From assembly GCA_963826715.1 (NCBI GenBank), contig CAWGYA010000002.1:384001-448000 (forward strand): DNA of 64,000 bases, read 5' to 3'. This document shows, piece by piece, positions 16,566 to 39,012 of this stretch. Source of the stretch: Candidatus Bathyarchaeota archaeon. Lineage in GTDB: Archaea; Thermoproteota; Bathyarchaeia; Bathyarchaeales; Bathycorpusculaceae. Positions within the stretch are counted from its first letter, which is position 1; each line of letters starts with the position of its first letter. The notes beneath the pieces were generated by a model. The model ran no database searches. It saw only the letters and a list, made by a program, of their open reading frames with translations, and had not been told where the DNA came from. Both the position numbers and the translations under genes were made by a program.

Positions 16566-16689
16566 GCTACGGTAACCAAGCCAGGTCAAAGGTGAAGGAC
16601 TCAAGATCTCGACGCTTTGACTCAAAGGCGCCTGATGGGAAATCCTTTCCCGCAGGGGTTCGCAGGTTCGAATCCTGCCCGTAGCACCA
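16566..16689 (+). tRNA. tRNA-Leu(CAA) with a 36-nt intron at position 37/38 (16606-16641) and encoded CCA
   Basis: Acceptor GCTACGG/CCGTAGC, anticodon stem AAGGA/TCCTT, CAA at 16602-16604, long variable arm, GTTCGAATC T-loop; bulge-helix-bulge formed by CTCA/TGGG with AGA and AAA bulges. Confidence 0.93.
16671..16689 (+). repeat. attL core, AATCCTGCCCGTAGCACCA (tRNA 3' end)
   Basis: Identical 19-mer at 32845-32863. Confidence 0.9.
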
Positions 16690-16705
16690 TTCCAGATAAG
16701 CATTT

Positions 16706-18561: not shown

Positions 18562-18563
18562 AA

Positions 18564-19037: not shown

Positions 19038-19246
19038 GTTATCCCCGCATTTTTCTCTTGGTTAAACGCTTCATAAACTGCTATGTAGACACCTAACTCC
19101 GCCACAAATACCAAAGTCCTAACCGTAGGATTCACCGATGTATGCTCCCTTCGGCAAGCCTCCGCACGGGCAACAGCTAACAAAGAACCCACATCAACCG
19201 TACGCTCATTAGGCGTTATCACTATTGCCTTAAACATCCAGAACAC
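19034..19246 (-). CDS. Hypothetical small protein
   Basis: Overlaps both neighbours in the operon. Confidence 0.4.
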   Translation of the reverse strand: MFWMFKAIVITPNERTVDVGSLLAVARAEACRREHTSVNPTVRTLVFVAELGVYIAVYEAFNQEKNAGIT

Positions 19247-20148: not shown

Positions 20149-20323
20149 GGGGTGTCACCTTCTTTATGGGCTCAAGAATTATCCGTTGTTTCTCATCCAA
20201 TTTTACTATGAAAAGGTCTGTGTTTTCTTCGCCCAGATAGCGTCGTAACTTTATGGGTATGACGACTGCTTTGGAGTTGTCTGTGTGGTATGCTTTTGCT
20301 GTTGTTATTATTTGTTCAACCAA
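20135..20323 (-). CDS. AbrB/SpoVT-like DNA-binding protein
   Basis: SKAVVIPIKLRRYLG...RIILEPI pattern. Confidence 0.7.
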   Translation of the reverse strand: MVEQIITTAKAYHTDNSKAVVIPIKLRRYLGEENTDLFIVKLDEKQRIILEPIKKVTPLGSQ

Positions 20324-20384
20324 TTAGCTTATACACCTCTATCTTCGATATTAGAAATATAATCTACTACCCCCTAGGGGTGTT

Positions 20385-21539: not shown

Positions 21540-21584
21540 ATTTAGGTAATTATTTTATATTAAAGCAAAGAGTAACTTGCCTTT

Positions 21585-21854
21585 ATGCTTGACATTAAGA
21601 CGCTTGAGGGTTGGCTCTGGGACGCAGCCTGCAAAATCCGCGACCCCGTCGACGCCCCAAAATACAAAGACCACATCCTACCACTAATCTTCCTAAAACG
21701 CCTCTCCGACGTCTTTGATGAAGAAATCGAAAAACTCGCAGCTCAATACGGTGATTTTAGACCTTTTTCGTGTGCTTCGATTGCATGCACTAACCTTGCT
21801 TCCCGTGATTCTAAACGTGACATTCTCCACTGTAACAACGCTGACAATGTTTGA
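21585..21854 (+). pseudogene. hsdM: Truncated type I restriction-modification M subunit (N-terminal fragment)
   Basis: [38 protein letters not shown] is the HsdM N-terminus; similarity ends after about 57 aa. Confidence 0.8.
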
Positions 21855-22159
21855 GGTTTTTTCTCTTTTTGTTTAAGTTTTTCAGGTACTTTTTTTACAT
21901 TTTGACTTGTACTTGGACTTGACATTCATATCACCAACTTGTTTAACCGTCAATCGATACTTAACTGGTCGGTGACAGAACGGTTCAATATTTATGAAGA
22001 ATTGACTGATTGTTTGGGTTTTGCCCAAATAGAGCGTAGCACTCGCTATCTTGGTCACTTCTCTAATATAAAAAACGCTCAAACCCTTGGGAAACATTCA
22101 TGCTTTAACGCTTATATTCCAAAGACCCCTAAATAGAAGCGCTGTAGCGAGAAACTGAT

Positions 22160-22786
22160 ATGCAATCTAAGGATAAAATTCTGCAAAGACTAGAAAACTC
22201 GATATCGGAATTAGACCTTAATTTTGCGGCTCTTAAGCAAGCAGAGATAGAAGTATGGATGCCTAAATATCCAGCCGATTTTACTATGGAATACGCTAAT
22301 AAGAGTATGACCAAAGCGCTTAAAATTTACTCACTCTGTTTGCATAATTACTTAGGTTCTTTCTTTTCCTTATTGCAGCATATTAGAAAAGCAAAAAGTA
22401 ACATAGATAATCCACAAATTGCGACTGAGTATGATAACGAAAAAAAGAAATACGCCATTATCGAGCTTCACTTTTTACAAGACTTGTCAGACTACTCGCG
22501 ACACAATGAATTACCAATGTCTGGTCAAAACACCGGATTATTCTATGGCACTCATGATCAGCCAAAAGACAGTAGCATACCTTCAATGATATCGTTATGT
22601 CCCCCCAGTCTATTAATCCCCAAACTCTTGGAAGACAAAAAACTTTCTGCCAAGTCAAATGCTTACTTAAACCATTACATTGAACAACAGGGAGCTGAGT
22701 TGATATTACCTCAAATAATAGATAAGGGACATAGTTCATTAAGACAATCAGCGCTTCTTTTATACAAAAAAATTGTTGAGTTCTAA
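22160..22786 (+). CDS. Hypothetical helical protein, possibly HEPN-like
   Basis: LHNYLGSFFSLLQH...FLQDLSDYSRHNELP resembles a degenerate HEPN Rx4-6H region. Confidence 0.45.
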   Translation: MQSKDKILQRLENSISELDLNFAALKQAEIEVWMPKYPADFTMEYANKSMTKALKIYSLCLHNYLGSFFSLLQHIRKAKSNIDNPQIATEYDNEKKKYAIIELHFLQDLSDYSRHNELPMSGQNTGLFYGTHDQPKDSSIPSMISLCPPSLLIPKLLEDKKLSAKSNAYLNHYIEQQGAELILPQIIDKGHSSLRQSALLLYKKIVEF

Positions 22787-23260
22787 AAGGAGCAGCGCGC
22801 GCTCTCGGGCTGGCTACTTTATTTCAGGGAATGGGAGGCTGACTGTTACTTGAATCGGGTAGAGTAAACCGTAGTCATAACGGGGCTAACTATTTAGCTG
22901 AGAGAAATTTGGCAAAATCTAAATACACTTTATGTCAAATTAACGTGCATGTCCACCATAGACTTTGTTGTAAGCAACGGTTGAGCTATTGTTACCGCGA
23001 TTCTTACAGGGGGTATATCTTTCATTTTTGGTGAACTATTATGGGCTTACTGGAAGAAGCCTAAGTTTGTAATTGAATGTTCCAATATCAAGCGCGGAAA
23101 GTTACCCCATTATTGGTTGAGGCAACGTCATTATTACTCTAAACTGTTGCTCACCGGGTCTTGTTGGTCTATATCTTATGTCTTTATCTTGAAAATCGCC
23201 CACCACACCCTCTTGTGCGCTGATTTTCTGCTATAGGCGGGGGACTACTATTTTGGTGGT

Positions 23261-23473
23261 TCAAACAGTCCGCCGCACATGGGGCATAATAGAGGTTGTG
23301 CTTTTGAGGTTTTTGGTTATTTGTTTATAGCATAAGTCCATGTAGCAGATGGGGCAGAGGCTGATTTTGCATTTTGGACACCACTTAAGCCCCGCGTTAA
23401 CGCCGCCGCATGCATCACAGGGCTTAGTTAAATCGTACTTTTCAAAGAAACCCATAACCACACATTCACCCAA
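23261..23473 (-). CDS. Small Cys-rich Zn-finger protein
   Basis: CDAC...CPKC...CPIC. Confidence 0.4.
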   Translation of the reverse strand: MGECVVMGFFEKYDLTKPCDACGGVNAGLKWCPKCKISLCPICYMDLCYKQITKNLKSTTSIMPHVRRTV

Positions 23474-23709
23474 GAGGATAAAAGGCGTTAACCTAAAGTA
23501 CCTGCCTAAACCTTAGAGGCTCAAGTGAAAGTAGAGTTTAGCACTTAAGGCAAATAAACTCTATCATTGCGGTATAACTCATGAAGAACTGCTTGACACT
23601 GCCTATCGCTCTTCTCGTTTATTTTTCAAAGACTATACAACGCGCCATGTGCTAATAACTTAAATTTAATATACAGCTTGTATGAATATGCCTAACTAGA
23701 GGCGCTATC

Positions 23710-24423
23710 TTGGTTAAAGTAAACAAGAAATTTGCGGTTAGTATCATTCTTATCTCAGCTATTCTCTTGGTAGTGGTTTTTATTTGGTTTGACTTAAGAC
23801 CCAGTGATTTTGCACCTGAAAGTAGCAAGTTTGAGGTTACTAACATAAGACTAGAGCCTTCTTCTGATTGGACAAGCTCCACTCTTCTTCTATCAGTCAC
23901 TAACATCTACAATTCGCCTGTGAATGTGATAGGGTCGAATGTAAATGGAAAGAGCTTTGGATATTCCACTTTTGAGGTTCCGCCAGGGCAAACAAAAGAC
24001 ATCAGTTTACAACTTCATGATTTGCCTATTACTAACTCTACGAGTTATGATGCCAAGTTGACCTTTACTTTTGAAGATGGAGTGTACCAAGTTTATGAGC
24101 AAACAGTTACACCTAAGAAATATAGCCCTGGCTTTATCATTAAGGATTCTGACCTTACCCCAACCTCTTCAAACTCTATCATGTATAATGTGACATTGCA
24201 GAATACCGGTAATATACCGATGGTAGATGCAAAAGTCATAGTAAATGGTGCTTATCAGACACCGCTACATGTGGCAGATAGGTTGGAACCGAAAGAAACT
24301 GTATCTTTTAGTGCAGAGATTTCTTTACCATTCAAAATTGGTGATAAGTGGACGGTTGAGATAGAGGCTGTCTTCATAGAGGGAAGCACCTTCTCGGCTG
24401 AATCCTCTTTTTCATTCAAGTAG
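23710..24423 (+). CDS. Membrane-anchored surface protein with two Ig/CARDB-like domains
   Basis: N-terminal hydrophobic helix; VTNIYNSP and VTLQNTGNIP beta-sandwich repeats. Confidence 0.65.
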   Translation: MVKVNKKFAVSIILISAILLVVVFIWFDLRPSDFAPESSKFEVTNIRLEPSSDWTSSTLLLSVTNIYNSPVNVIGSNVNGKSFGYSTFEVPPGQTKDISLQLHDLPITNSTSYDAKLTFTFEDGVYQVYEQTVTPKKYSPGFIIKDSDLTPTSSNSIMYNVTLQNTGNIPMVDAKVIVNGAYQTPLHVADRLEPKETVSFSAEISLPFKIGDKWTVEIEAVFIEGSTFSAESSFSFK

Positions 24424-26165: not shown

Positions 26166-26570
26166 TTAAGGTTTGTATTGAAGAGAAACCGTTATTCGTT
26201 TACGACTTAAACTAGTTTTAATTTCTGAGTTAATTTTCGAGTTTTCTTTTCCTTTGCTTGCGTGACCAAAACGGGTAATCTTCCAATTTTTGAGATTGCC
26301 TCTGATTAACTGTGGGTTGCTTGTTAGAATGTAGAAGGGCGTTTTTGTTTGGGAAGAGTAGAGTTCAGCGATAAAGTTTAGGAACCGTTTGCCAACTCCG
26401 ACTCCTTGATAGTCCGGTAGCACAACTAGTCGGCTTACTCTGTAGTATTTTGCTTTCATTCTTACGCATGCGACAGCTATGAATGCTATGGGTTTCTCTT
26501 TATAGACTGCCGCGTAACACCGAACACCGGCACCCAAAGAACCGTTTAGATAATGATGCTGCCGAAACAT
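26166..26570 (-). CDS. GNAT acetyltransferase domain (probably the C-terminal part of a frameshifted fusion)
   Basis: HHYL, RVSRLVVLPDYQGVGVG acetyl-CoA-binding motif. Confidence 0.8.
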   Translation of the reverse strand: MFRQHHYLNGSLGAGVRCYAAVYKEKPIAFIAVACVRMKAKYYRVSRLVVLPDYQGVGVGKRFLNFIAELYSSQTKTPFYILTSNPQLIRGNLKNWKITRFGHASKGKENSKINSEIKTSLSRKRITVSLQYKP

Positions 26571-27226
26571 CTTCCAAAGGGATGCGCCGCACCGATAAAC
26601 GCTGAGGTTAACGGGCGGCCGACTTCTTTTTTTTTGCTAAACTCCATTGTATCGGTGGAGAAAACCCAGTCAGGATCTAACCAATCAACCACATCATAGT
26701 GACAAGTAACAGCAATGAATTTCTTTGCGCTTCTGCGAACTGCCTTGCTGATGGCAAAGGCGCTGACTTTAGCTATTTCTCGATCGACAACGCTTGTGAA
26801 CTCATCAAAAACGATCAAAGGCTGCTCAAGACACAATGCTCTTGCGATGTCTACCCGCATCTTTTCTCCCTGACTCAAACAATCATAACCTTTTAGCCAG
26901 TCCGGTGGACTAGCAAACCCGACACTACAAAGTATCTTTGTAATCTCACCAGTTTCAAGCTCTTGGGGAAAATCATCAAGAACACACTTACCGTTGTAAT
27001 CAAATTCTCGGATGTAGGCTTCCGGGAAAAGCTGCTTAGCTATGCTGGTTTTGCCTGAACCGCTGCGCCCAACAATGACGCCGATTTGCCAATCAAAAGT
27101 TTCCAGTGGCAAATTGCCCTTAAACCGTTTCTCCAACTTTACGTCGTTTAGGGTGTAGCTGCCCACGACGCTCTGGGCTCGGAAGCTGTCGGATTCTTCC
27201 CATTTTTTTACTATGTCAAAATCCAT
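26546..27226 (-). CDS. Soluble ABC-type ATPase
   Basis: Walker A GRSGSGKT, signature LSQGE, Walker B IVFDEF, H-loop VTCH. Confidence 0.85.
   Translation of the reverse strand: MDFDIVKKWEESDSFRAQSVVGSYTLNDVKLEKRFKGNLPLETFDWQIGVIVGRSGSGKTSIAKQLFPEAYIREFDYNGKCVLDDFPQELETGEITKILCSVGFASPPDWLKGYDCLSQGEKMRVDIARALCLEQPLIVFDEFTSVVDREIAKVSAFAISKAVRRSAKKFIAVTCHYDVVDWLDPDWVFSTDTMEFSKKKEVGRPLTSAFIGAAHPFGRCFGSIII
26586..26635 (-). other. Candidate -1 frameshift signal: A9 run, 7-nt spacer, stem-loop
   Basis: T9 at 26627-26635 on the + strand; imperfect hairpin GCCGC-CCG.../...CGG-T-GCGGC at 26586-26619; the -1 frame is open into the GNAT ORF. Confidence 0.65.
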
Positions 27227-27240
27227 TCTTGTCAGCTCCG

Positions 27241-27816
27241 CTAAAGTGTTAGGATTCTTAGTTTGAACCCCTGGGCTTTTAACTTCTCAAAATATTCTTT
27301 TTGTTGTGCCTCTGATTTACATTCAATTATGAGCTCGTAGGTTTCAGGAACCGAAAAAGAGACCTCTCGATCATCTACCTCTATAGGAAGCTTTTCGCCT
27401 ACGGATTGAAGGAATAACTTTAATTCCTCTTTCTCTCCCTCGTCAATTATGCGCAGGTACTCGGCACTATCCATCTCCCTGTTATGTTTGCCCCGTAGCT
27501 TGTTTAGCACCTGCCGAAGCAAACGGCGATCAACATCCTTAACTGGCAAGCGAATGACGCTGCACTCAGTCATACCAAGCTCCTTCATAGCCGTAACACG
27601 CTGCTGACCATCAGCCACCAAAAGCTCACTGTTAGTGACGACTGGAACGATGTCGCCCCATCGCTTAATTGAAGATTTTAAGCGGTCAAGCTGCATAAGA
27701 GTTAATCTGTTAGGGTTGTCTTGGTCAAACTTGAGCTCGCTGATTCTTACTCGCTCCGACATTGGAATTGGAATTTCTTTTTCATTTTCCACTGATTCTC
27801 TGCTAAGTACGCTCAT
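27241..27816 (-). CDS. ParB/Srx-like N-terminal domain protein (virus-type)
   Basis: ISELK..NPN..LKSSIKRWG..PVV..VADGQQR. Confidence 0.8.
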   Translation of the reverse strand: MSVLSRESVENEKEIPIPMSERVRISELKFDQDNPNRLTLMQLDRLKSSIKRWGDIVPVVTNSELLVADGQQRVTAMKELGMTECSVIRLPVKDVDRRLLRQVLNKLRGKHNREMDSAEYLRIIDEGEKEELKLFLQSVGEKLPIEVDDREVSFSVPETYELIIECKSEAQQKEYFEKLKAQGFKLRILTL

Positions 27817-28595
27817 ATTTTCAAACTCTCCCTAAATGTTAATTGACAAATTTGGTCATTTTCCGATTTTTTCATAAACCAGCCGCACTTTTCAGCACAT
27901 GTTGGACATTTCTCTTTAAGGTAACGTGCATTACGTGCGTCACACTCCGCGTTCTCCGCTTGTTCTTGCTGTTCTTCTAATTCTTCCACCCTTGCTTGCT
28001 CAGCTGTCCTGTTAGCAGTTAACTGTTGAATATTCTGGGTTGTTTTGAAAACGTTATGTGCTTCACAGAAGCGATTAAAACTCTCAGGAGTAAATAAGTC
28101 ATGGTTCCAAGCCGCATAGACGGGGGCTAAGAGTCTTTCTTGTTCACCTTCACATAGTTTCCAATATCCAGGGGTTTTAAAGACTGCTATTTCTGCGTCG
28201 AATTGTTTTTTGAATTTGCGGGTTTCTTCTATTAGCCAATAGAATCGTGTGTAGAAGACCCAGTTGGCCATGGGGTCTTTTAGCGTAACAAAAGCATCTG
28301 TGAAGACTTGAAAAATCTCATATACTCTAGCCATAAACCGGCGGTTAGCTGCATCTACGATTGCTTGATCATCTGGTGACAGGGGGGTACAGGTGGTTTC
28401 TCCCCGATCGGCTGCTTGCTGCAATTCTTCTCCATAAGCCTCCAAGATATGGCTCGCTCGTCTATGTAACTCGTTTTCAGCTCGATCTAACTCTATGTCA
28501 CCGTTGTCCCATGTTATCTTTGTAGTGCCTTCGTGGGGAAGTTCAGGTAGGACATTTTTTTCTAATGCATGGAGTTTCCGGCTTAGGATATTCAT
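27813..28595 (-). CDS. Hypothetical protein
   Basis: ATGA overlaps at both ends; helical, with a C-terminal CPTC..C. Confidence 0.65.
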   Translation of the reverse strand: MNILSRKLHALEKNVLPELPHEGTTKITWDNGDIELDRAENELHRRASHILEAYGEELQQAADRGETTCTPLSPDDQAIVDAANRRFMARVYEIFQVFTDAFVTLKDPMANWVFYTRFYWLIEETRKFKKQFDAEIAVFKTPGYWKLCEGEQERLLAPVYAAWNHDLFTPESFNRFCEAHNVFKTTQNIQQLTANRTAEQARVEELEEQQEQAENAECDARNARYLKEKCPTCAEKCGWFMKKSENDQICQLTFRESLKI

Positions 28596-28876
28596 TTCTT
28601 TTTATCCTCCGGTTTGGGTATTAATATGCTGTTTTTGAGCTTCTCCTCTAAAGTTATCACCCGAAGCTCCAACTCCTCATCCTTTAGCAAGGGACCATAG
28701 GCTGAAACTGCTGAAACCAAAACCCGTGCCCAACCCTGCTTTGCTTTATCGCTGTTTCCCTCGGAATGAATTTTTTTATGAGATAAACCTAATACACCGT
28801 CTAAAACACGAAACAACGTATTTCTACGCTCCTTTGTAGAACGGTTTGATGTTGGTTTCTTGGCGGTTTCAGCCAT
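28592..28876 (-). CDS. Hypothetical protein
   Basis: First gene of the coupled operon, with a purine-rich RBS upstream. Confidence 0.6.
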   Translation of the reverse strand: MAETAKKPTSNRSTKERRNTLFRVLDGVLGLSHKKIHSEGNSDKAKQGWARVLVSAVSAYGPLLKDEELELRVITLEEKLKNSILIPKPEDKKK

Positions 28877-29427
28877 AGCTCATGCCTTCTTCTCTCCCTC
28901 GTGCTCTTTGCTTACGCGTCTTTAAACGCCAAATAGTTACGCAACTCAGTCGAATGCTTGAAGCCTTTACAGTTGTCCATGACATTGGTTGTTTTAGTTC
29001 AACCATTTAAAAACAGAATAATAATTGTAAGAATACCGGGTCAGAGGTAGGGTGAGAGGGCAAGTTACAACAAAAAACATAAAGTCTTTTTCCCTACCGT
29101 TTACCGCTTTATCTAGAACTACCTGCACAAAATAGCCCCACCATCGAGTCACTTTATAAAAATTAACATATAGTCACGCCCAAGTTGAAGACGGAAATAA
29201 TGAAATTTGATTGCCCCCTGCAACGACTAACTAACATTCAGGGGTTTTCCTCAAACTGTTTATAGCTAACTCAAATAAAAAGGCTTTTGATTAGTCGCAG
29301 ATCAATGAAAGAGACAGGCCCTCACCATGCATCATTGATTACTTCAATAGGAGAATTGACTGAAGAAGCACCGGATTATGTTAATTTAGACAAAAAAGAG
29401 TGGAGTTAAAAAAAATTTGAGCGTCTA

Positions 29428-30153
29428 TTATGAATATTTTTCAAGTAATTCTTTGACTGCTTTGAGCAACTCTGCAGGGTTTTCTTTAAACCGTTCGTCT
29501 AATCTGAAATGCGCTGGTTCCATCACTTCGGGTCGGACTACCCGTATTTTATCTCTGATGGTGCTTATGCGAGAGGCAAGGTTCAATTCGGGATATATTT
29601 CATCGATGACAGCAATAACTACTGAGTCTTCAGGTTGCAGGACTACTTGAGGGTCAAACCAGTGAGCCGGTTCCATGACTTCAGGTCTCACAGCTATTGC
29701 CTTACCGTGGGTTACAGTAGTCAATGTTGGAATCGTAAGCGTTGGTTTTCTGAAATGCGCTGGTTCCATCCAATCCGTCTTAAGTTTGAGTTTTAATGCA
29801 TCAAACCAAATGGCATACAAACAATATTTGCCAACGGACGCTTTGATAGGAGTCTCTTTTAGGTTGCTAAGTGCATGATTTAGTTCGCTTTCAAAAAGGG
29901 TTCCTCGTAGATTATCGCCGCCAATGGTGAGTTTGTTTACATTTCCTTTTTCACCGATTTCAACAACGATAGGAATAGTTGTTGTTACGACGAAACCAAT
30001 TTTTCTTGAAACACTATCAAAAGCATTATCGATAGCTTTTTGGTATTTTTCCTTGATTATTTTGTAAATTGCAAGCAGGTCTTCGTATTGTTTTATGATT
30101 CCGGGGTGTGCAGGTTCCATCCAGTCTCTAAGTCTAAGATTTTTTTCAGCCAA
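29428..30153 (-). CDS. Protein with four (W/V)MEPAH repeats; putative radical SAM substrate
   Basis: DWMEPAHP, DWMEPAHF, RPEVMEPAHW, RPEVMEPAHF; TTG start with a GGAGGTGA RBS that contains the upstream stop codon. Confidence 0.75.
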   Translation of the reverse strand: MAEKNLRLRDWMEPAHPGIIKQYEDLLAIYKIIKEKYQKAIDNAFDSVSRKIGFVVTTTIPIVVEIGEKGNVNKLTIGGDNLRGTLFESELNHALSNLKETPIKASVGKYCLYAIWFDALKLKLKTDWMEPAHFRKPTLTIPTLTTVTHGKAIAVRPEVMEPAHWFDPQVVLQPEDSVVIAVIDEIYPELNLASRISTIRDKIRVVRPEVMEPAHFRLDERFKENPAELLKAVKELLEKYS

Positions 30154-30157
30154 TTTC

Positions 30158-31906
30158 TCACCTCCTTTGGTCTTCTTCTAATTGTTTTTTGAAGAAGTTA
30201 TATGGAATTACATATGGAGAAAGCCCCATCAAATCAAGTATGCCCGCTTGGGGACCAAGAGATTGACTTTGGAAGCTAGATTTGTCATTGATTGAAAGTA
30301 CCGAGCTTTCTAAGCCGCCATTGGCATAAATTGCGGGCATCATTTTTATCGCGTTATCCCTGTTTTTGTAAGCTTCTTCCATCCAGTCAATGATAGCTTG
30401 ACCCTGCAACCGCAGCACACTACTTTTCTTATCGATTTGTGTACGCATTTGCTGAGTAAAGTTGGCGATGGCTGCTTCATCATGATTTTCTCCAGAAATG
30501 AAATCGTAAATCACACTTAGCCAATGATATGTATCAAGATTTGTCTGTTTTATGAAATTCTTAACTTCACTTCTCAGAGTTTCAGACAATAGGTTAGGGT
30601 AGAAACGCCTTAGCAGTTGGAAGTAGAAATCCACCTGCATGTTGAAGTAATGCAATCCATAGTCACTGAAATTGCGGTCAAAGAACGCATAATTAGCGAT
30701 TTGATGGAATAATTCGCATTTTGAATCTGCAAGACGATAATCGAAGCCGAAATAACTCCCTAACAGACGGTTTTCGGCAGTTAGTTTTGCTTCTAAACCT
30801 GTGCCTGCATAAGCTTCTGCTCGGCAAAAGTTAAACGGATTGTCAAGGTGCCTTTCCATGAAACGAATATTAAGCAGCAAATCTGCCATGGATGCGTCCG
30901 GCTCAAACATCAGAAAATTATAAGCAACATGGATATTGAAATCGTTGAGTACGGTGAGTGCGTTGAGAGTTTGCTCAAGGGTTTGTATTCGGTTTAAATT
31001 ATTTAGTCCATTAGCCGAAGCGTTTTCAACTCCCAAGAAAACCCTAAATAAGCCCAACTCATCAAGGATTTTTATGGATTCTCGATCTATGCTTTCAGGC
31101 CTTGCTTTGATAGCAATAGCGATTCCTTCAACTTTCTCTTGCTTTAAACGGTCTCGAAGAAGTCTAAAACGCTCAATTGCTTGCTGCTGATTGGGCAGGA
31201 AGAAATTATCATCCTGAAAATTAAAAATTCTTATTCCGTGCTCAAAGTACAGTTGCTTCATCTCTGCAACGATGTTTTCTACGCTGCGATAGCGGAATTT
31301 CTTACCTCCAGCCTGATTATACCAAGCGTTAATGCTGCAAAAAGCGCAGTTCCGCCAGCAACCGCGGCTGCTTAGAATGCTGCCGATTTTTTTCCCGAAA
31401 TACTCATGGAAATGCTCCCTTTTTGGGAAAGGCAAAGAATCCAAGTTTTCCCTGTTCCCATTTCCTTTGTTTGTGGAGATTTTGCCATCTGTATTTCGAT
31501 AACATAAAGCTGGAACCGATGCGAGTTTGTCGAGATTATTTGCCAGTGAGACCATAAGGTCTTCACCTTCACCTAAAGCAACCGAGTTTATAGCGGGGTA
31601 ATCAGTAAGTAGCTGTTCGCTGTTGAAAGACGCGAAATGTCCCCCGGCAACTATGTGGCCCTCGTAACCCGACTCTCGAATGCTTTTGGCTAAGTTGAGA
31701 AACTCTCTGGCCCGGCTGGTGAACACCATAGATAAACCTATGATTTGGGGGGTAAAGTTGAGGATGTCTTGAACTACTTTTGCTTGGTCGTAGTTTGAAT
31801 TGAAAGGAATTACTTGTGTTTGATGTTTATGCGCTTCAAGTGAGGCGGCTATGTAGCGTAGCCCCAGATTTTCTTCAAGTTCAGCTCCTACAAGTGCTAT
31901 TTTCAT
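30158..31906 (-). CDS. Cobalamin-binding radical SAM enzyme (class B methyltransferase-like)
   Basis: N-terminal B12-binding domain (LGLRYIAA, IVAGGHF), SRGCWRNCAFC, FQDDNF, LGVEN; long C-terminal extension. Confidence 0.9.
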   Translation of the reverse strand: MKIALVGAELEENLGLRYIAASLEAHKHQTQVIPFNSNYDQAKVVQDILNFTPQIIGLSMVFTSRAREFLNLAKSIRESGYEGHIVAGGHFASFNSEQLLTDYPAINSVALGEGEDLMVSLANNLDKLASVPALCYRNTDGKISTNKGNGNRENLDSLPFPKREHFHEYFGKKIGSILSSRGCWRNCAFCSINAWYNQAGGKKFRYRSVENIVAEMKQLYFEHGIRIFNFQDDNFFLPNQQQAIERFRLLRDRLKQEKVEGIAIAIKARPESIDRESIKILDELGLFRVFLGVENASANGLNNLNRIQTLEQTLNALTVLNDFNIHVAYNFLMFEPDASMADLLLNIRFMERHLDNPFNFCRAEAYAGTGLEAKLTAENRLLGSYFGFDYRLADSKCELFHQIANYAFFDRNFSDYGLHYFNMQVDFYFQLLRRFYPNLLSETLRSEVKNFIKQTNLDTYHWLSVIYDFISGENHDEAAIANFTQQMRTQIDKKSSVLRLQGQAIIDWMEEAYKNRDNAIKMMPAIYANGGLESSVLSINDKSSFQSQSLGPQAGILDLMGLSPYVIPYNFFKKQLEEDQRR

Positions 31907-32844
31907 TTTGTTTTTCTCCCAAAGTCTTAAATAGGCAGATGTCTGCTTTCAGCCGACTTATCTATTGTTTCTTAAAGTTCCCTGCTTGCTTTACCTAACT
32001 TATGCTCTATCATATTTAATAATATGTGACTGTATAGAGATACCTACAAATCACCACCATTTTCTGCCACCAACTCTACGTTCGTCCTCAACTTTTTAAG
32101 TGGGAAGTGATGGGTCAAAGCCAGAATTGCTGATGTCAAATCTGTGAAGTTCTTTGCAGTTTGGGCATCTGAAAAGGAGTTTTGTGCCAACCCCCGCATA
32201 GAATAGTTTAGGGCTCTTGGTTAATACTGGATATGTTCAAATCAAAAATGTACTCGATTCAACGCTCGACTATGAATCTAGTATATGATGCATCGCCTTT
32301 ATTCTGCGTTAATGGGTTATGTTTTAATAGGCTCAATTAAAACTGCCGACTAAATTCAACTATTTTTTTAAGCGTTATCGCTTGACCACATACAAAAACG
32401 GCTTCTATTCGACTGCAAGAGGCAAACTATACCGCAAAGCATCAGTCGCATTGTCGTTCTCTGACGTCTTACCGATACTCCAACAACTTATGATAAGGTT
32501 ATAAGATAAGAAAAATTGCTTGGAAGAATGTTGAAGCTTAATTTGGCTATTGATTTTTTGACTCGTTAACCGCTTTTTCTAAATCAGTCAAGTCCAAAAT
32601 AATACGGTTAGTAATAGAGTTAAATTTCTCAGGTTGCCGTTTCCTAAATTGAGTAAACCGATAACGGTAACGCATGAGGCTATTCCAACTTTTCTTTTCT
32701 GTTGTGCTGCCATCTACAAGTAAGCTTGGAAGCTTGCGCTTAACCCTATCAGCACTTACCAAAAAAGAAAACCTCCTTAATAGTAATGGCAGATGGAAGA
32801 GAAAAAAGGGGAAAGTGTAGTAAAAATACTTGTCTGGGGGGGCA

Positions 32845-32863
32845 AATCCTGCCCGTAGCACCA
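32845..32863 (+). repeat. attR core, AATCCTGCCCGTAGCACCA
   Basis: Identical to 16671-16689. Confidence 0.9.
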
Positions 32864-32937
32864 ATAAATCCCAATCCATGGGGAAATTTTTATACAACTT
32901 AGACCTTTTAGGATATAAGTCTCGCTGGGTGGCTTGG

Positions 32938-33177
32938 TTGATTAAATATATCGTAACAGAGGAAGACAAAAGAAGCCTTAAGGCGTTAGCCATAGAGCTC
33001 CATGAAATCCGCAAGCTAATCGAACAACTCGCCGAAACCGCAGTAAATCTAAGCGACAAACAATTTTTGAAGTGTTTTAATGCAAGCCAAAACGCCCTTA
33101 AAGAGAAACAGGTTGACCGCTATTGGGAAACGCTGGAAAAAGAGATAGACATTGTTGAAAAGGAATTTCAAGCCTAA
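32938..33177 (+). CDS. Hypothetical protein, antitoxin-like (start uncertain)
   Basis: LAETAVNLSDKQFLKCF resembles the L-ET-xx-LSD segment of Phd/YefM-type antitoxin C-termini. Confidence 0.4.
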   Translation: MIKYIVTEEDKRSLKALAIELHEIRKLIEQLAETAVNLSDKQFLKCFNASQNALKEKQVDRYWETLEKEIDIVEKEFQA

Positions 33178-33493
33178 ATGAAAGCGCCTTTTGAGCCAAT
33201 AGTTTTGGGTCACCTTCCTCTTTGGACTCGGTCTTAATTACTTGGGGTAATTGCTCTTTTTAAATATTGATGCTAAGACTCAATAGTTTTAACCAGGCTT
33301 TTCAGGACTATAAAGCAAGCCAAGCCCACCCATTGCGTGATTAGTCATGTGGGCTTGTTGCAAATGCGGTACTTATAGATCGCAATATGCACACACACCA
33401 AATAGTGCAAACATTTAGCCGATACGGATAGAAAGGTTAATACCATAGACAGCGCGTTTGTAAATCCGTTACAAATAAGCTGTTTCTATATAG

Positions 33494-33745
33494 TTGCTAA
33501 TAACTACAGTCAAACGCTTAATTGGATACCATAAACCCAAATTGTCAGGAGGAAAAAAATTGAAGAAGAAAACCAATACAGCATCGATGCTGTTCACTTG
33601 CCCACAATGCAACTCAAACTTTGAATTTGACGCAATAGGCGAATATGAACTGGTTGCCTGCCCCGTATGTGGAACCCCGTGCGTCACAGTCAAAGCAGAA
33701 AACAAACAAGTACTACAGCACTTTGAGCAAGCTCTAATATGTTAA
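33494..33745 (+). CDS. Small Zn-ribbon protein, LysW-like fold
   Basis: FTCPQC...ELVACPVCGT; lacks the EDWGE tail. Confidence 0.55.
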   Translation: MLITTVKRLIGYHKPKLSGGKKLKKKTNTASMLFTCPQCNSNFEFDAIGEYELVACPVCGTPCVTVKAENKQVLQHFEQALIC

Positions 33746-34042
33746 GAACCAGTATGTGGGTTTAATCATATATTCGCTTTGAGCTCTCCTTATTTTTTGT
33801 TTTTTTAATTTCTGAATCTTACCTTAAAAAAATCTGGAATTCCTGCATTCATACTAGATACATGATTTTTGCAATTACATAGATGCATAAATTTTTCTTA
33901 GGCAGTAAATACTGATGACTCCCACCTCACGTCTACTTCTATAAATGCTCATACCTTCAAGCGTAATTAAAACCCACAACCTCTATCAACTATTTACAGC
34001 ATAATACAAAATAACCAAGACGATATTTACCTACGAGAGGAA

Positions 34043-35830
34043 TTGACATTGGATGCTCCGCAAGTCATTTGGGACTTGACTGAACTTTTCAGTTGCATAG
34101 AAGACCCTAAAATCCAAAAGGGCGTTACGCAAATCATCGTATCAGCGGACGCTTTTGAGCAAAAATACCGTGGAAAAATCGCATCCCTATCAGCTAATGG
34201 GTTGTTGGAGTGCCTGCGAGAAGTGGAAAACTTTAACATCGTATTCAGTGACTTAACCCTTTACTCGAGTCTTTGCTTTGCAGCTGATATGACTCAGCCC
34301 AATTCTCAGGCATTAAATGACAGAATCAACAAGCTAGAAGCAAAAATAGCCAAGCAACTTGCCTTTTACTCCCTGGAGCTAGGTACATTACTTAAAAATA
34401 AGCCAGAAATTGTAAAAGCCTCTGAACTTGCTAACTATAAGCATATGCTAGAACGTATGCAACGTCGCATACCCCATCAACTTTCAGAAGTTGAGGAACA
34501 ACTAATTATTGAGAAAGACCAGTTTGGTGTATACGCGTGGGAAGAACTGCAGAGTAAATGGTTAAACACCCGATTATTTGAAGTAAGCGTTTTGGGTGAG
34601 AAGAAAACATTAAGCTATAGCGAAGCAAGTGGATTGCTCTCGAATCCTGATCGCGCTACCCGCGAATCCGCGAACCGAGTAATCTATGGGTTACTATGTA
34701 AAGACGGCGAAATTTTTTCATCATCTTTGCGAAGCATCTGCAATGACTGGGTTACAGTATGTAAACGACGAAAATATTCGTCGCCAATGGAACCCAGCTT
34801 GATAAGTAACGATACTTCGCAAGACATAATTGAGAATCTGCTACGGACTGTGGAGAAAGGCGCTGTATCATATAGGCGCTACCTCAAATTGAAAGCAAAA
34901 CTGATGGGTTTGCCAGTGCTTGCTAATTATGACATTGTGGCTCCCCTACCGGAAGTGAAAGAATCTAAGATCACTTTTTCACAAGCCCAGGATATCCTAA
35001 CTCAAGCGTATAGCCGGTTTGATATCAATTACTCTTTAGCTGTTAAAGAAATGTTTGAGAAGCGACATATCGATGCGGAACCAAGGTTTGGAAAACGCAA
35101 TGGTGCCTTCTGCGCAAGTTACTGCAGTGGTAAATCAGCATATATTTTGCAGAGCTTTAATGGTACCCTAAGCGACGTATTTACGTTGGCACATGAATTA
35201 GGGCATGCCACCCATGACTGGTTCATGGCAAGAAACCAGACTTTCATGAACATCCATGTGCCCTCCATCGTTGCGGAAACCGCCTCTATCTTTGGCGAGT
35301 TGCTATTAACGGATTTAATGCTGGATAGAACTAAATCCAACACAGAACGCAAGGCGTTACTCTGCTTGGTTTTGGATGAAGTAGGTATGACTGCTTTTCA
35401 GGTAACGGCGCGGGTGTGGTTCGAACAGCAACTCTACTCATCAATTGAGAATGGCGAATTTCTCGATTACCCTACTATCTGCCGACACTGGACGGAAGCG
35501 CGGGACCGGATTTTTGGCGACGCTGTTAGATGGCTCCCCGAAATGTCAGCGGAATGGACAATGAAGCCACATTACTATATGGCCAACTATCGCTTCTACA
35601 ATTACCCCTATGTTTACGCACAGATGTTCGTCTATAGCCTTTACGAACGCTATCTTAAGGAGGGCAAGTCTTTTGTGCCTAAATTGGTAGAGTTGCTTTC
35701 AACTGGCAGCAGTAAATCACCACGAGAACTCGGCGAAGTTGTAGGTTTGAATATATCTGACCCCGATTTTTGGCTAGGAGGCTTAAGGGTGTTTGAAGGT
35801 TTCATCGGCAGCTTAGAAGAAACCCTTTAG
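34043..35830 (+). CDS. pepF: Oligoendopeptidase F (M3B family)
   Basis: WDLTELF N-terminus, GKRNGAFC, HELGH, AETAS, HYY..FYNYPY. Confidence 0.92.
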   Translation: MTLDAPQVIWDLTELFSCIEDPKIQKGVTQIIVSADAFEQKYRGKIASLSANGLLECLREVENFNIVFSDLTLYSSLCFAADMTQPNSQALNDRINKLEAKIAKQLAFYSLELGTLLKNKPEIVKASELANYKHMLERMQRRIPHQLSEVEEQLIIEKDQFGVYAWEELQSKWLNTRLFEVSVLGEKKTLSYSEASGLLSNPDRATRESANRVIYGLLCKDGEIFSSSLRSICNDWVTVCKRRKYSSPMEPSLISNDTSQDIIENLLRTVEKGAVSYRRYLKLKAKLMGLPVLANYDIVAPLPEVKESKITFSQAQDILTQAYSRFDINYSLAVKEMFEKRHIDAEPRFGKRNGAFCASYCSGKSAYILQSFNGTLSDVFTLAHELGHATHDWFMARNQTFMNIHVPSIVAETASIFGELLLTDLMLDRTKSNTERKALLCLVLDEVGMTAFQVTARVWFEQQLYSSIENGEFLDYPTICRHWTEARDRIFGDAVRWLPEMSAEWTMKPHYYMANYRFYNYPYVYAQMFVYSLYERYLKEGKSFVPKLVELLSTGSSKSPRELGEVVGLNISDPDFWLGGLRVFEGFIGSLEETL

Positions 35831-36652: not shown

Positions 36653-37153
36653 TTACTTTGCCTCTTCTTTTTCTTGGAAGAGCTTTTTGATTGCACTGAT
36701 TCGAGCTTTTTGCGCCAAAACATCGCTTGTTACAACAGTAAGTGCTTCTTCGGGGCACCATTTGACGCATTGCGGACCTTCAGCTTTGTCTTTACATAAA
36801 TCGCACACGTAGACCACTTTGGTTTCTGGATGCAACATCATGGCACCATAATCACATGCTTCAATACACCAGCCGCAACCGTTGCATTTGTCTTTGTCCA
36901 GTACAATGTTGCCGGTGTCTTCTGCCTGTGAGAGAGCATCTCTTGGGCAGGCTGCTACACATGCAGGGTCCTCACAAAGTCTGCAGGTAACTGCCATGTT
37001 GGCTGTTTGGTTAACCCGAACTAAGCGAATGCGAGATTTCAACGGATTAAAGGCTTTCTCTTTATTCATAGAGCAAGCGTACTCACAGATTTGACAACCC
37101 ACGCATTTTTCGGGGTCGGCAGAAATGAATTTTCTTTGGTGAAGTTTAACCAT
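36653..37153 (-). CDS. 4Fe-4S multicluster electron-transfer subunit associated with AOR
   Basis: Multiple CxxCxxCxxxC motifs; coupled to aor. Confidence 0.9.
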   Translation of the reverse strand: MVKLHQRKFISADPEKCVGCQICEYACSMNKEKAFNPLKSRIRLVRVNQTANMAVTCRLCEDPACVAACPRDALSQAEDTGNIVLDKDKCNGCGWCIEACDYGAMMLHPETKVVYVCDLCKDKAEGPQCVKWCPEEALTVVTSDVLAQKARISAIKKLFQEKEEAK

Positions 37154-37155
37154 TT

Positions 37156-39012
37156 TTATGCCTCTTTCCCCTTTGTTAAACTTGAAAATTCTTGTAACCC
37201 TAATTCTTGAAGCTTCGCTTTAGGTGGAGTACCCTCTACTGTCCAACCACGAGCTTGATAGTAGTCGTCAAGCATCAAATCCAATTCCTCCTGAGTTACA
37301 ACAGAGCCCTTTGCGATCCCATCATCGGGTACTGGTTGATTCATGACTTTCCAGGGAAGTGTGTCATCACTTCTTGTAAAGCCCTCACGTAGATTGATAA
37401 GTTTAGCTAATGTGTTAATGCGTTCGCCTGCTATGCTGAGTTCTTCAGGGGTTATTTCAATACCAGTAGTGGCAGTGTAGAGTTTTGCCATGTCAGCGAG
37501 TTCCTTATAGAATGTGCCTTTCGCATTTTTGCACACAATAAGCGAGTCAATTATTGCAAAAATATCCTCATTATCTTTGACTAATTGACCTCTACCTTTT
37601 TCAGCCTTGAAGCGATCAACCTTGCCTTTGATATCAAGCGCGTATACACCACTTCGATTATGATCAGCTCCGCGGAATGAAACCGCTGCGGCCAACGCGG
37701 CTGTTTTGAGGCACCTTAGGTCGTAACCAGTAACTTCCAAGCCTTTGATTTGCTGGGCGAGTGAACCTGAGTTCTTACCGATTTTTTCTGCAGCCACCTT
37801 CACGCCGTCTGCCAGCATTTCACCAATACCTTCGCGTTTGCCGATTTGATCTATTAGTTGGATAAGTGCTTCGCTGTTGCCGAAGTGAGCGTCGATTCCG
37901 CCAAGATCTTCATGCGTTAAAATACCTTTTTCGTGGCAGTCCATAAGGAAGCTTATGGTCACACCAGTGCTTTGCGCATCCAAGCCATAGTAGTTACAGA
38001 GTTCAGAAGCTTTGATGATTGCGTCGAGTTTGTCTACGCCGACGTTTGGTCCAAGCGCCCAAAGGTTATCATACTCCATCCGAGCTATAACGCCTTTGTA
38101 CGGACCTTCCCGGACAACAGCCTCATGTTCACAGCGCATAGCACATGAGTTACAAGCGATAATTTTGGCGATGAAACGTTCGTTTAGGACCTCGCCGCTA
38201 ACTTTTTCTGCTTCATCAAAATGCGAATAAGTATAGTTGTTTGTGGGCATACAGAAAAGTGCATTATTAACCATGACATTTTCCACTGACCCCAGTGTAC
38301 GATATTTCTGTGCTGCGGGTCCCTTCATACGTTCATGAAATTCTTTAACCATATCCATGAATTCATCAGGTTTGGCAACAGCTATATCGCGGGTTCCTCG
38401 CACAGCAATGGCTTTAAGATTTTTGCTGCCCATAACAGCGCCAAGACCGCTTCTGCCTGCCGCTCGAGTTTTTTCGTTGATAATACATGCAATTTTGGAT
38501 TGTTTTTCACCTGCTAAACCGATTGATGCAACGCGAACATAATAATCGCCTATTTCGTCTTTGATTGCATCTTCGGTTTCGCTTGGGGATTTGCCCCAGA
38601 TGTGAGCTGCATCAAGTATTTGGATGGAGTCATCATCTATCCAGAGATAAACTGGTTTTTCAGCTATGCCGGTTAACACAATTGCGTCGTAACCTGCGCG
38701 TTTGAGTTCGGCTCCGAAGGTTCCGTGACTGACTGCTTCGCCAACACCGCCTGTTTCGGGTGATTTCGAAATGAAGGCGTGTCCGTTGCCGCCTGTAGGA
38801 AACATTGTTCCTGAAACTGGTCCGAGAGCTAACACAAGCGGGTTTTCAGCGCTCAGCGGGTTAATGCCTGCTTTTGAATTGGATAAGTAGAGTTTCATTC
38901 CTAAGCCGATTCCGCCAATATATTTTTTAGCGGTTTCCTCGCTTAGTTTTTCTATGCGGGTTTTGCCTGTCTTTAAATCGACAAATAGAACTCTTCCTGC
39001 GTAACCGAGCAA
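37156..39012 (-). CDS. aor: Tungsten-dependent aldehyde:ferredoxin oxidoreductase family enzyme
   Basis: GYAGRVLFVDL, KSPETG, AAGRSGLGAVMGSKNLKAI, CNSCAMRC, DDYYQARGW. Confidence 0.93.
   Translation of the reverse strand: MLGYAGRVLFVDLKTGKTRIEKLSEETAKKYIGGIGLGMKLYLSNSKAGINPLSAENPLVLALGPVSGTMFPTGGNGHAFISKSPETGGVGEAVSHGTFGAELKRAGYDAIVLTGIAEKPVYLWIDDDSIQILDAAHIWGKSPSETEDAIKDEIGDYYVRVASIGLAGEKQSKIACIINEKTRAAGRSGLGAVMGSKNLKAIAVRGTRDIAVAKPDEFMDMVKEFHERMKGPAAQKYRTLGSVENVMVNNALFCMPTNNYTYSHFDEAEKVSGEVLNERFIAKIIACNSCAMRCEHEAVVREGPYKGVIARMEYDNLWALGPNVGVDKLDAIIKASELCNYYGLDAQSTGVTISFLMDCHEKGILTHEDLGGIDAHFGNSEALIQLIDQIGKREGIGEMLADGVKVAAEKIGKNSGSLAQQIKGLEVTGYDLRCLKTAALAAAVSFRGADHNRSGVYALDIKGKVDRFKAEKGRGQLVKDNEDIFAIIDSLIVCKNAKGTFYKELADMAKLYTATTGIEITPEELSIAGERINTLAKLINLREGFTRSDDTLPWKVMNQPVPDDGIAKGSVVTQEELDLMLDDYYQARGWTVEGTPPKAKLQELGLQEFSSLTKGKEA

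Follow-up and report, generated by a model that had tools for sequence, protein, structure and literature searches.

In the genome of a Candidatus Bathyarchaeota archaeon, the gene for a radical S-adenosylmethionine (SAM) enzyme is followed by the gene for a small protein in which the short sequence MEPAH occurs four times, and the locus raises the question of what such an enzyme has to do with its repeat-bearing neighbour. Both genes are located on the reverse strand of the stretch of 64,000 nucleotides (nt) analysed here, referred to as the window (positions 384,001 to 448,000 of contig CAWGYA010000002.1, assembly GCA_963826715.1), and all coordinates are counted from its first letter. In an earlier description made from the letters alone, referred to as the sequence-only reading, it was suggested that the enzyme modifies each MEPAH site, the product being either a multi-core peptide made by the ribosome and modified after translation (RiPP) or a modified Met/His metal-binding protein. 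Here, the enzyme and its neighbour, termed the partner, are shown to be a dedicated, obligate gene pair. This two-gene cassette probably consists of a class B radical SAM enzyme and a dedicated protein substrate, which would be modified at each copy of the motif and would be kept as a protein.

The gene pair and its radical SAM enzyme

The linkage of the two genes was followed from both sides. A scan seeded with the partner, covering one genome per prokaryote species, gave 47 loci, and a full-length orthologue of the enzyme (54-85% identity) was identified beside the partner in 43 of them, directly upstream in 41 of the 43. At locus L036, a gene for a DUF900 hydrolase is placed between enzyme and partner, and at L031 the gene order is reversed. 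The four misses comprise L024 and L047, which start within 260 nt of the partner gene, and L020 and L041, which are truncated orphan copies. For the converse scan of metagenomes, seeded with the enzyme, the best 80 of 258 enzyme relatives were kept, and in 76 of these 80 loci the partner is the next gene downstream, on the same strand and separated by 8-157 nt; at the other four, cut by contig ends, just 64-180 nt of contig remain. As tests of its proposal, the sequence-only reading had named the linkage of EPAH-repeat homologues to radical SAM genes and the presence of such partners beside close homologues of the enzyme, and both were found.

A third conserved gene was not identified: shadow open reading frames (ORFs) excepted, when the 47 genome loci and the window locus are taken together, no other ORF cluster is present at more than 4 of them. 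The other clusters above this number were assigned as shadow frames, because their example coordinates fall inside the two genes. The Pfam content of 78 flanking ORFs is heterogeneous and includes DnaX, RsgA, MurB, ribonucleotide reductase, regulators and peptidases. At three closely related acidobacterial loci (L021, L023 and L026), a gene for an S9 prolyl oligopeptidase is present upstream, and a prolyl peptidase beside a protein with an E-P motif is possibly worth a look. A caspase-like C14 peptidase is encoded beside the cassette in L025 and L034, an M20 peptidase in L035, and a LuxR/GerE regulator upstream of it in the three Geobacter-type loci L018, L030 and L036; no such neighbour is general.

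In the window, the two genes form an operon of the kind described in the sequence-only reading, with the stop codon of the enzyme gene inside the ribosome-binding site of the partner gene. At the junction on the minus strand (..CCAAAGGAGGTGAGAAATTG..), the TGA stop codon (30160-30158) is the last triplet of the Shine-Dalgarno-like sequence GGAGGTGA (30165-30158), and the TTG start codon of the partner gene follows 4 nt on, at 30153. The assignment of TTG as start codon is supported by the family, since the first in-frame start is located upstream of motif copy 1 in 103 loci, where it is ATG in 75. In four salt-marsh metatranscriptome runs, contigs with mostly 95-97% identity to the window were found that cover positions 29513-31975, comprising both genes and part of the upstream region and nothing in the flanks compared, and one of them, of 743 nt (29516-30258), bridges the gene junction. 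The stretches without RNA cover (28600-29370 and 31984-32800) are not evidence of transcript ends, and the higher depth of the RNA contigs over the partner gene (in X5, 40 versus about 5) is not usable to rank expression. These contigs give a hint that the pair is transcribed in nature, in a relative of the host.

By its sequence, the enzyme is assigned to the class B (cobalamin-binding) radical SAM enzymes as a family of its own, and the use of cobalamin in catalysis is predicted. The Pfam models B12-binding (PF02310, residues 12-121) and Radical_SAM (PF04055) were matched with 63.5 and 68.4 bits versus cut-offs of 32.1 and 29.5, respectively. The CxxxCxxC signature is present as C183-W-R-N-C187-A-F-C190, with all three cysteines invariant in 58 homologues. 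Among 7999 candidates scored, 897 homologues were found at E <= 1e-20, the best 120 of which are all at least 58% identical, and an alignment of 58 sequences drawn from many phyla has a mean column identity of 66%. No NCBIfam model was reached by the enzyme; the matches below cut-off include HpnR as the best (102.8 bits versus 650), ApyD (89.7 versus 750), BchE (87.9 versus 481), rSAM_ocin_1 (87.2 versus 282) and the methyl-coenzyme M reductase (MCR) glutamine C-methyltransferase (59 versus 360), and also the ladderane B12 radical SAM model and HpnJ. In PADLOC, a single generic match to the candidate family PDC-M51A was obtained (48.7 bits), and in PHROGs there was none for either enzyme or partner.

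The AlphaFold2 model of the enzyme, with a predicted local distance difference test (pLDDT) score of 84.7, consists of a Rossmann domain and a barrel, with a long helical domain at the C-terminus. The nearest solved protein is OxsB (PDB 5ul2, 5ul3 and 5ul4), at 16-18% identity, both by sequence profile (E 6.6e-18, followed by PDB entry 9ccb with E 1.7e-8) and by fold with Foldseek (E 1.2e-21, template modelling score 0.64 on the query). The other best Foldseek matches are TsrM, MgmA, CysS, TokK and AprD4, the solved class B enzymes being 13-18% identical to the enzyme, and alignments of its fold were obtained with OxsB, TsrM and TokK in their cobalamin-bound form. MgmA (PDB 9ccb, by its title an MCR glutamine methylase; fold match E 2.6e-17) is a class B enzyme that acts on a protein, and Mmp10 and PoyC are further class B enzymes which modify proteins or peptides. 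With such modifiers the enzyme shares the N-terminal B12-binding Rossmann domain, the CxxxCxxC barrel and the helical C-terminal domain. OxsB is not known to have a partner of the EPAH-repeat type, and in comparison to MgmA-type enzymes the presumed substrate is a small repeat-site protein encoded adjacently, not a large metabolic enzyme or a natural-product precursor.

The host genome encodes CobS twice and 14 B12-binding domains, which is counted in favour of the proposed enzyme and substrate. Eight of the 14 matches are located within 45 kb of contig 8, at about 865-910 kb, mostly in frames of ~470-505 amino acids, and this may be a cluster of corrinoid methyltransferase or radical SAM genes. 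The enzyme itself has, at residues 526-571, a tail that is disordered and variable (pLDDT 31-53), with a short conserved PxPYxxF end behind it that contains P568, Y569 and F572. This C-terminal tail (residues 526-582; window 30158-30330) could tether the TolA/TonB-like domain of the partner which is described below.

The repeated motif and its carrier protein

The four copies of MEPAH reported in the sequence-only reading for the 241-residue partner were confirmed at residues 12, 129, 160 and 211, as were their two flavours, DWMEPAH and RPEVMEPAH. With uniform residue frequencies, about 7e-5 extra exact copies of a given 5-mer are expected in 241 amino acids, and the three extra copies are therefore not a matter of chance. 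The residues EPAH are encoded by GAA CCT GCA CAC in copy 1, GAA CCA GCG CAT in copy 2, GAA CCG GCT CAC in copy 3 and GAA CCA GCG CAT in copy 4, and a string of 22 nt, GATGGAACCAGCGCATTTCAGA, is common to copies 2 and 4. Among 505 instances from 114 loci, every synonymous codon occurs at all four motif positions, so that selection acts on the peptide, in agreement with the earlier view. Repeats at the DNA level or a recent duplication were rejected as the origin of the motif, since the codons differ between the copies and all synonymous codons are used family-wide.

Conservation was determined from an alignment of 98 partner homologues, which are 34-89% identical to the window protein. Glutamate and proline are invariant in copy 1 (E13, P14), copy 2 (E130, P131) and copy 3 (E161, P162), the alanine and histidine positions of these three copies, A15 and H16 in copy 1, are conserved to at least 90%, and the same bound applies to E212, P213 and H215 of copy 4. 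Between the motifs, G53, W116, A119 and L120 are invariant.

A word-seeded search with 1406 candidates gave 536 partner homologues at E <= 0.01, and in a HMMER pass over 1.84 billion cluster representatives, 152 partner clusters (50% identity) were found at E <= 0.001, 60 of them at E <= 1e-30. From 921 instances in 268 proteins, the motif consensus is [RP]-[DEG]-[WV]-x-E-P-[AV]-H-[FPWY], with the conserved core [DE][WV]xEP[AV]H. The sequence-only reading had taken MEPAH as the conserved unit. The residue before the glutamate (position -1) is methionine in only 31% of the instances, arginine in 16% and valine in 14%, so that methionine is not part of the conserved motif, which is better given as xEP[AV]H with [DE][WV] before it. 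Since the methionine varies, the Met/His metal-binding protein considered previously has become unlikely, and a copper-type Met/His site was rejected. Replacement of the histidine by glutamine is rare (EPAQ 17, EPVQ 7 and EPSQ 3 versus EPAH 823).

The repeat is the conserved, modular feature of the partner, and its copy number ranges from 0 to 12 across the family. In 194 family proteins of at least 200 amino acids, four copies are present in 100, five in 34, six in 15, seven in 3, eight in 3 and twelve in 1, and three or fewer in 38, many of which are fragments or diverged. Extra copies are inserted right behind motif 2, in the linker, or as tandem units at the C-terminus. The tandem unit consists of RPEVxEPAHF followed by an amphipathic helix ending in RRYGY, and it is this unit that holds motif 4. 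The member with 12 copies (P0158) has 386 amino acids, and two members with long tails (P0177 and P0250) show PGVREPAH units alternating with helices of the SRYG type. In P0220 (525 amino acids), a long hydrophobic N-terminal region is joined to the C-terminal half of the partner, and P0146 was also listed among the unusual members of the family. A fusion of enzyme and partner was rejected, as the longest protein among the best 150 of the 152 HMMER matches, from a search unrestricted in length, has 525 amino acids.

No model of Pfam, NCBIfam, PADLOC or PHROGs covers the partner. In Pfam and NCBIfam, only a sub-threshold match to DUF1128 (PF06569) and chance matches were obtained, no precomputed Pfam domain was present on partner homologues among the matches listed, and PADLOC gave 0 families. 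The name YfkK (UPF0435) or DUF1128, which is given to members in some sources, was rejected: PF06569 matches the window protein with 22.9 bits versus a cut-off of 27, over residues 191-219 only, and is found at E <= 0.01 in just 6 of 98 family members. A search of PDB sequences with the partner profile gave only a chance match to a haemagglutinin (E 0.74).

The AlphaFold2 model of the partner has a pLDDT of 80.7, with values of 94-98 over residues 21-120. Residues 17-126 form a confident domain of a long helix, two strands, a helix, a strand and a helix; residues 133-159 are disordered (pLDDT < 50), and residues 174-204 and 226-240 are helical. All four motifs are located at the edges of structural elements, in blocks with a pLDDT of 46-77, while the adjoining domains are above 90. 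For motif 1, block 1-10 has a pLDDT of 52 and block 11-20 one of 77; motif 2 is at the edge of the disordered segment and motif 3 at its end, and the block of motif 4 has 56-68. In the model, the motif segments are thus predicted to be exposed and flexible.

With Foldseek, nothing was found for the partner model at E <= 0.001, the top rows being of the TolA/TonB type (E 0.11-0.6). In a wide search with VIA-align using the N-terminal domain (residues 13-117), the top 8 rows were all C-terminal domains of TolA or TonB. The best of these, TolA domain III, gave a Z score of 7.0 with a root-mean-square deviation of 3.3 A over 91 of 102 residues, where Z scores of 7-8 are typical without a true match. 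Language-model features of the ESM Atlas, with scores of 0.89-0.91 and few common features, also lean towards TolA/TonB (0.89-0.90) and are leads at most. The sequence identity of the TolA/TonB C-terminal domains to the partner domain is 6-13%, the partner has neither a membrane anchor nor a periplasmic signal, and no TonB or TolA model of Pfam was matched. The resemblance of the modelled N-terminal domain to the C-terminal domains of TolA and TonB is hence a lead, not a membership.

Possible functions of the pair

In the mechanism proposed here, the substrate would be a cytoplasmic protein of ~240 amino acids that combines a TolA/TonB-C-like domain with short exposed [DE]-[WV]-x-E-P-[AV]-H-aromatic sites in flexible segments. 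The enzyme would bind to the partner and draw each of the exposed sites into its active site, and every copy, of which there are four here and as many as twelve in relatives, would receive the same modification. The chemistry would most likely be the methylation of an unactivated carbon within the invariant Glu-Pro-Ala/Val-His core; methylation is proposed because most characterised class B enzymes carry it out, methylation at an sp3 carbon being the commonest outcome for this class. The product would remain inside the cell as a protein modified at multiple sites and would not be cut into exported peptides. The partner as substrate, its motif as site, the kind of chemistry and the product's fate are inferences; shown are the two genes, the motif with its conservation, the strict linkage in both directions, the class of the enzyme, the disorder of the motif segments and the genomic context.

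The assignment as a maturase with a dedicated multi-site substrate is based on the two-way linkage, the exposed and invariant motif, the expansion of the motif beside a constant enzyme and the lack of a third gene. That the product would work as a protein is suggested by the conserved and folded N-terminal domain, with no protease or exporter present. Glutamate and proline vary least within the motif. The interchange of alanine and valine together with the rare exchange of histidine for glutamine weakly suggests that the histidine may be a recognition residue and not the universal target.

The binding of the partner by the enzyme was addressed by a complex prediction with SAM and a [4Fe-4S] cluster, in which alignments made for this analysis were used and three controls were included. 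A score of 0.48 was obtained (runs 0.51, 0.44 and 0.48) versus 0.00 for the best of the three controls, the runs agreeing in at least 31% of contacts with a partner pLDDT of at least 63. Of 80 solved complexes, 58 attain the mark set for this score, as do 2 of 110 mismatched pairs; at values of 0.60 or lower, only 7 of the 80 complexes do so, and both mismatches. Given the strong prior from linkage, the prediction is mildly positive for an association of the two proteins. The prediction was classed as weak support and reported no interface from which the position of a motif could be read.

Several points weigh against the proposed mechanism. The complex score lies in a weak band, and no contacts were given with it that would place a motif in the active site. 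Chemistry and site are inferred throughout, and class B enzymes also carry out reactions other than methylation, an example being the best fold match, OxsB, whose substrate is a nucleotide of the oxetanocin pathway and which is not known as a methylase; BchE and HpnJ are also among the best NCBIfam matches of the enzyme. The occurrence of glutamine in place of histidine in some copies speaks against histidine as the universal target. Much of the partner is well folded and conserved and could have another or an additional role. As to transcription, contigs from RNA libraries may contain DNA, and the organism covered is a relative whose flanks may simply differ.

Systems of a related kind have been described. 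In the TvgB/TvgA system, a radical SAM enzyme acts on the repeating TVGG motif of TvgA, giving a poly-cyclopropylglycine peptide (PMC9062424). It resembles the present pair in that the enzyme is encoded beside a substrate with a repeated motif and each TVGG repeat is modified. However, TvgB belongs to a radical SAM subfamily binding up to three [4Fe-4S] clusters and not to the B12-binding class, and TvgA is a precursor peptide made of the repeating motif (PMC9062424), whereas the partner is a protein of 241 amino acids with confidently modelled conserved domains between its motifs. In the HXS defence system, the HxS-repeat effector HxsA is matured by the radical SAM enzymes HxsB and HxsC (PMC13128918). 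There, radical SAM enzymes mature a protein-sized effector with several short histidine-containing motifs, and this effector acts as a protein rather than a small peptide (PMC13128918). HXS comprises four genes (two radical SAM enzymes, HxsD and HxsA) versus two genes with one B12-type enzyme here, and the present pair differs in the absence of a signal sequence, in its motif and in the lack of a third or fourth conserved gene. No Hxs model of NCBIfam was matched by the partner, and none by the enzyme among the matches listed (25 of 35).

A radical SAM maturase with a cognate repeat-bearing substrate is therefore a known kind of system, and what is undescribed is the family with its motif and the presence of a folded multi-site protein as the partner of a class B enzyme. 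In the literature searched, which did not cover supplementary tables, no description of the pair, the motif or four homologue locus tags was found; the statement of the sequence-only reading that the motif belongs to no described family held, with no family in Pfam or NCBIfam and no paper on the pair. The pair may be a new case, in which many sites of one dedicated, folded protein are modified by a class B enzyme. Work on radical SAM enzymes together with their cognate peptides or proteins has repeatedly uncovered new chemistry and new biology, cofactors, antibiotics and defence effectors among them, and the sequence of the target site proposed here is short, sharply defined and accessible as a synthetic peptide. 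It is conceivable, if on balance doubtful, that an undescribed modification is installed on the Glu-Pro-Ala/Val-His core at 3-12 sites of a dedicated cytoplasmic carrier, by a module that has spread horizontally and has also become archaeal-virus cargo. If true, this would mean that a protein carries a modified residue of a new kind, which might serve as a protein-derived cofactor, as a sacrificial donor or as a redox or metal site, in a module spread horizontally among anaerobic bacteria and archaea of soils and sediments.

Instead of being the substrate, the partner may be an accessory subunit (a scaffold, a chaperone or a carrier of a cofactor or metal), with the substrate of the enzyme found elsewhere, as a small molecule or another protein. 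In variants of this explanation, a corrinoid or metal would be held by the glutamate and histidine residues of the repeats, or the TolA/TonB-like domain would serve as a tether. The strict linkage and the weak complex signal would suit any obligate partner, and glutamate and histidine are classical metal ligands. TolA/TonB C-terminal domains, which the N-terminal domain resembles, bind partner peptides by strand addition, and the disordered tail of the enzyme with its conserved P568, Y569 and F572 could be such a ligand. However, the copy number of the motif goes from 3 to 12 by tandem expansion while the enzyme remains ~60% identical, which is typical of multi-site substrates, and the variation of the motif is hard to reconcile with a stoichiometric subunit. 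In addition, the motifs are located in disordered segments with no preformed site, no known cofactor-binding family was matched in Pfam or NCBIfam, and no further conserved gene for another substrate pathway was found, so that an accessory role is regarded as rather unlikely. The folded state of the partner also bears on the multi-core RiPP of the sequence-only reading, for which xEPAH units, once modified, would be cut by unlinked or variable proteases to give small peptides or a peptide-derived cofactor. The regions between the motifs are conserved and confidently folded (pLDDT 94-98), unlike spacers, and in Pfam and NCBIfam no leader family, RiPP recognition element or signal peptide was matched by the partner. 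The cores are short, repeated and variable in number, as expected for such a precursor, and two models of RiPP C-methyltransferases, ApyD and rSAM_ocin_1, figure among the enzyme's best NCBIfam matches, although both are far below their cut-offs. Peptidases of the S9, C14 and M20 families adjoin the cassette at the loci named above, and in the window, genes for an M3 oligopeptidase F and an M24 Xaa-Pro peptidase are located 2.1 kb and 7 kb from it. A protease or exporter conserved beside the pair was nevertheless not found: a peptidase is the immediate neighbour in only 6 of the 45 loci with flanking ORFs scanned, the three S9 cases are close relatives, and the M3 gene of the window is on the syntenic chromosomal side and also present in genomes without the cassette. 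A classical RiPP is hence considered improbable.

A third explanation, a module for anti-virus defence or conflict, leaves the relation of enzyme and substrate unchanged, the enzyme maturing a repeat-bearing effector as in HXS, which provides the precedent (PMC13128918). It would fit the patchy distribution, with the partner missing from all 200 other genomes sampled from its class, among them 11 of the genus, and also the cross-domain transfer, the self-contained cassette with its own upstream region and the location in a provirus cargo slot, as set out below. PADLOC, with 0 families on the partner and only the generic match on the enzyme, argues against it, as do the neighbours in other genomes, which are mostly housekeeping genes and not defence islands, the lack of relatives among viral contigs and the nature of the other cargos of the slot, which are sensor kinases and metabolic genes. 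A role in defence is therefore thought very unlikely. The proposal of a maturase with a dedicated multi-site substrate, whose product remains a protein, is the one retained here.

Provirus cargo slot, gene layout and distribution

The mobile-element context noted in the sequence-only reading was substantiated by provirus remnants on both sides of the cassette. The sequence at 32372-32500 matches the 3' end of the gene for a 444-residue terminase large subunit (TerL; phrog_2, E 3e-29) from a provirus on contig 5 of the same genome, and on the other side an element is present which in that provirus, L129, lies upstream of the head-maturation protease gene (Table 1). The same two elements bracket a different cargo in L129. 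Beyond them, the contig-5 provirus encodes scaffold and major head proteins, and before them ParB-like, ATPase and GNAT proteins that are 44-64% identical to those encoded at 26166-27816 of the window. The slot between terminase and protease is occupied by a PocR/PAS histidine kinase in L129, and in L132, a provirus of the same genus syntenic with the window, by an ArsR-type regulator, a CDP-alcohol phosphatidyltransferase, a PNPOx-like protein and a PAS kinase. Based on these comparisons, the cassette (2.6 kb) is assigned to the cargo slot of a head-tailed provirus, which is a decayed remnant, since the terminase body and all head genes are gone from the window. Among 2.9 million viral contigs of IMG/VR no partner relative was found, an alignment pattern having matched 15 stretches of which 0 encode one, so that carriage by a virus is not the usual state of the cassette. 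The locus adds a new context, a family of head-tailed proviruses of Bathyarchaeia with a variable cargo slot, one remnant of which carries the cassette.

Table 1. Coordinates of the cassette, its motif copies and the bracketing provirus elements in the window
Feature	Position	Strand	Description
Enzyme gene (P0121)	30158..31906	-	582 amino acids; assigned as B12-binding (class B) radical SAM enzyme
Partner gene (P0001)	29428..30153	-	241 amino acids, TTG start; EPAH-repeat protein
Layout of the partner protein			TolA/TonB-C-like N-terminal domain, residues ~17-126; disordered linker 133-159; small helical region 174-204; C-terminal helix 226-240 (predicted)
Shine-Dalgarno-like site of the partner gene, GGAGGTGA	30158..30165	-	contains the TGA stop of the enzyme gene; direct sequence reading
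Motif copy 1, M12-E-P-A-H16	30106..30120	-	context RDWMEPAHP
Motif copy 2, residues 129-133	29755..29769	-	context TDWMEPAHF
Motif copy 3, residues 160-164	29662..29676	-	context RPEVMEPAHW
Motif copy 4, residues 211-215	29509..29523	-	context RPEVMEPAHF
Conserved upstream region of the cassette	31907..32034	-	128 nt; likely promoter and 5' leader; nucleotide homology to L001 and L048 ends at 32034
Terminase large-subunit remnant (last 28 codons)	32372..32500	-	83% over 132 nt, 82% over 28 amino acids
Element upstream of the head-maturation protease gene in the contig-5 provirus	29101..29198	-	80% over 101 nt, L129 6040-6140

The provirus family of this genus is represented by L129 (own genome, contig 5, 156000-166000) and L132 (genome G157, contig 9, 340000-353000), with the gene order ParB-like, ATPase (phrog_11143), GNAT, a small ORF, TerL, the variable slot, head protease, scaffold and major head protein. 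In the window, five genes with overlapping ends are located at 26166-28876 on the minus strand, coding for a GNAT protein, an ABC-type ATPase (phrog_11143, E 2e-59), a ParB/GmrSD_N-like protein and two ORFs of 260 and 94 amino acids without a family match. This block, which looks like the replication/partition end of the provirus family, is also present twice in one genome of the same genus, at other places and with 77-79% identity. At 15583-18130 on the minus strand, the gene for an N6/N4 DNA methylase (15583-16470) adjoins an ORF of 474 amino acids with a weak integrase match (phrog_5127, E 2e-6), followed from 18124 to 24423 by several ORFs without a family match, in a region of low G+C content (0.37-0.41). 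The region from 15583 may be the rest of the integrated element.

The long non-coding flanks of the cassette were found as previously described: the downstream flank of 551 nt (28877-29427) and the upstream flank of ~640 nt (31907-32546) contain only ORFs of 51-52 amino acids, and a scan of 28600-34100 with Rfam at E <= 1 gave 0 families and hence 0 riboswitches in the flanks. In a scan for sigma-70 promoters and terminators, which is unsuited to an archaeon, sites in the flanks were no more numerous than in shuffled sequences. No terminal repeats were found around the cassette; one inverted pair of 18 nt is present within the downstream flank, and chance matches of 9 nt occur between the flanks. 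The nucleotide homology to L001, the other Bathyarchaeota locus, extends from 32034 to 29428 exactly (80.6% over 2617 nt), with the same upstream limit for L048, and the moving unit therefore comprises the two genes and 128 nt upstream, which likely represent promoter and 5' leader.

The genome of the window (2.64 Mb, 96% complete) contains one copy of the cassette. The pair is carried by numerous bacteria and archaea that are anaerobic. By record title, the carriers include Bathyarchaeota, many Acidobacteriota, Geobacterales and other Desulfobacterota, Brocadia, Nitrospinae, Anaerolinea, Methanoperedens, ANME-2 and Methanosarcinales, and two carriers that are cultured and non-pathogenic are Geobacter hydrogenophilus DSM 13691 (L033) and Geomobilimonas luticola JCM 17780 (L036). 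In a tree of 44 enzyme sequences from a quick search, rooted only at the midpoint, the window and L001 are sister to an acidobacterial sequence with full support, and archaeal rows occur in three places. As judged from these sequence comparisons, the cassette moves horizontally between bacteria and archaea.

In five genomes of the same genus, no DNA match to 29428-31906 was found, and the same five contain the side from about 32843 onwards, with a zinc-ribbon gene, oligopeptidase F and an aldehyde:ferredoxin oxidoreductase. In the window, the gene for the M3 oligopeptidase F is located at 34043-35830 on the plus strand and is an ordinary chromosomal gene, present in genomes of the same genus without the cassette. 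The genes for the aldehyde:ferredoxin oxidoreductase and a 4Fe-4S ferredoxin at 36653-39012 on the minus strand are likewise chromosomal and are shared with genomes of the same genus in which the cassette is absent.

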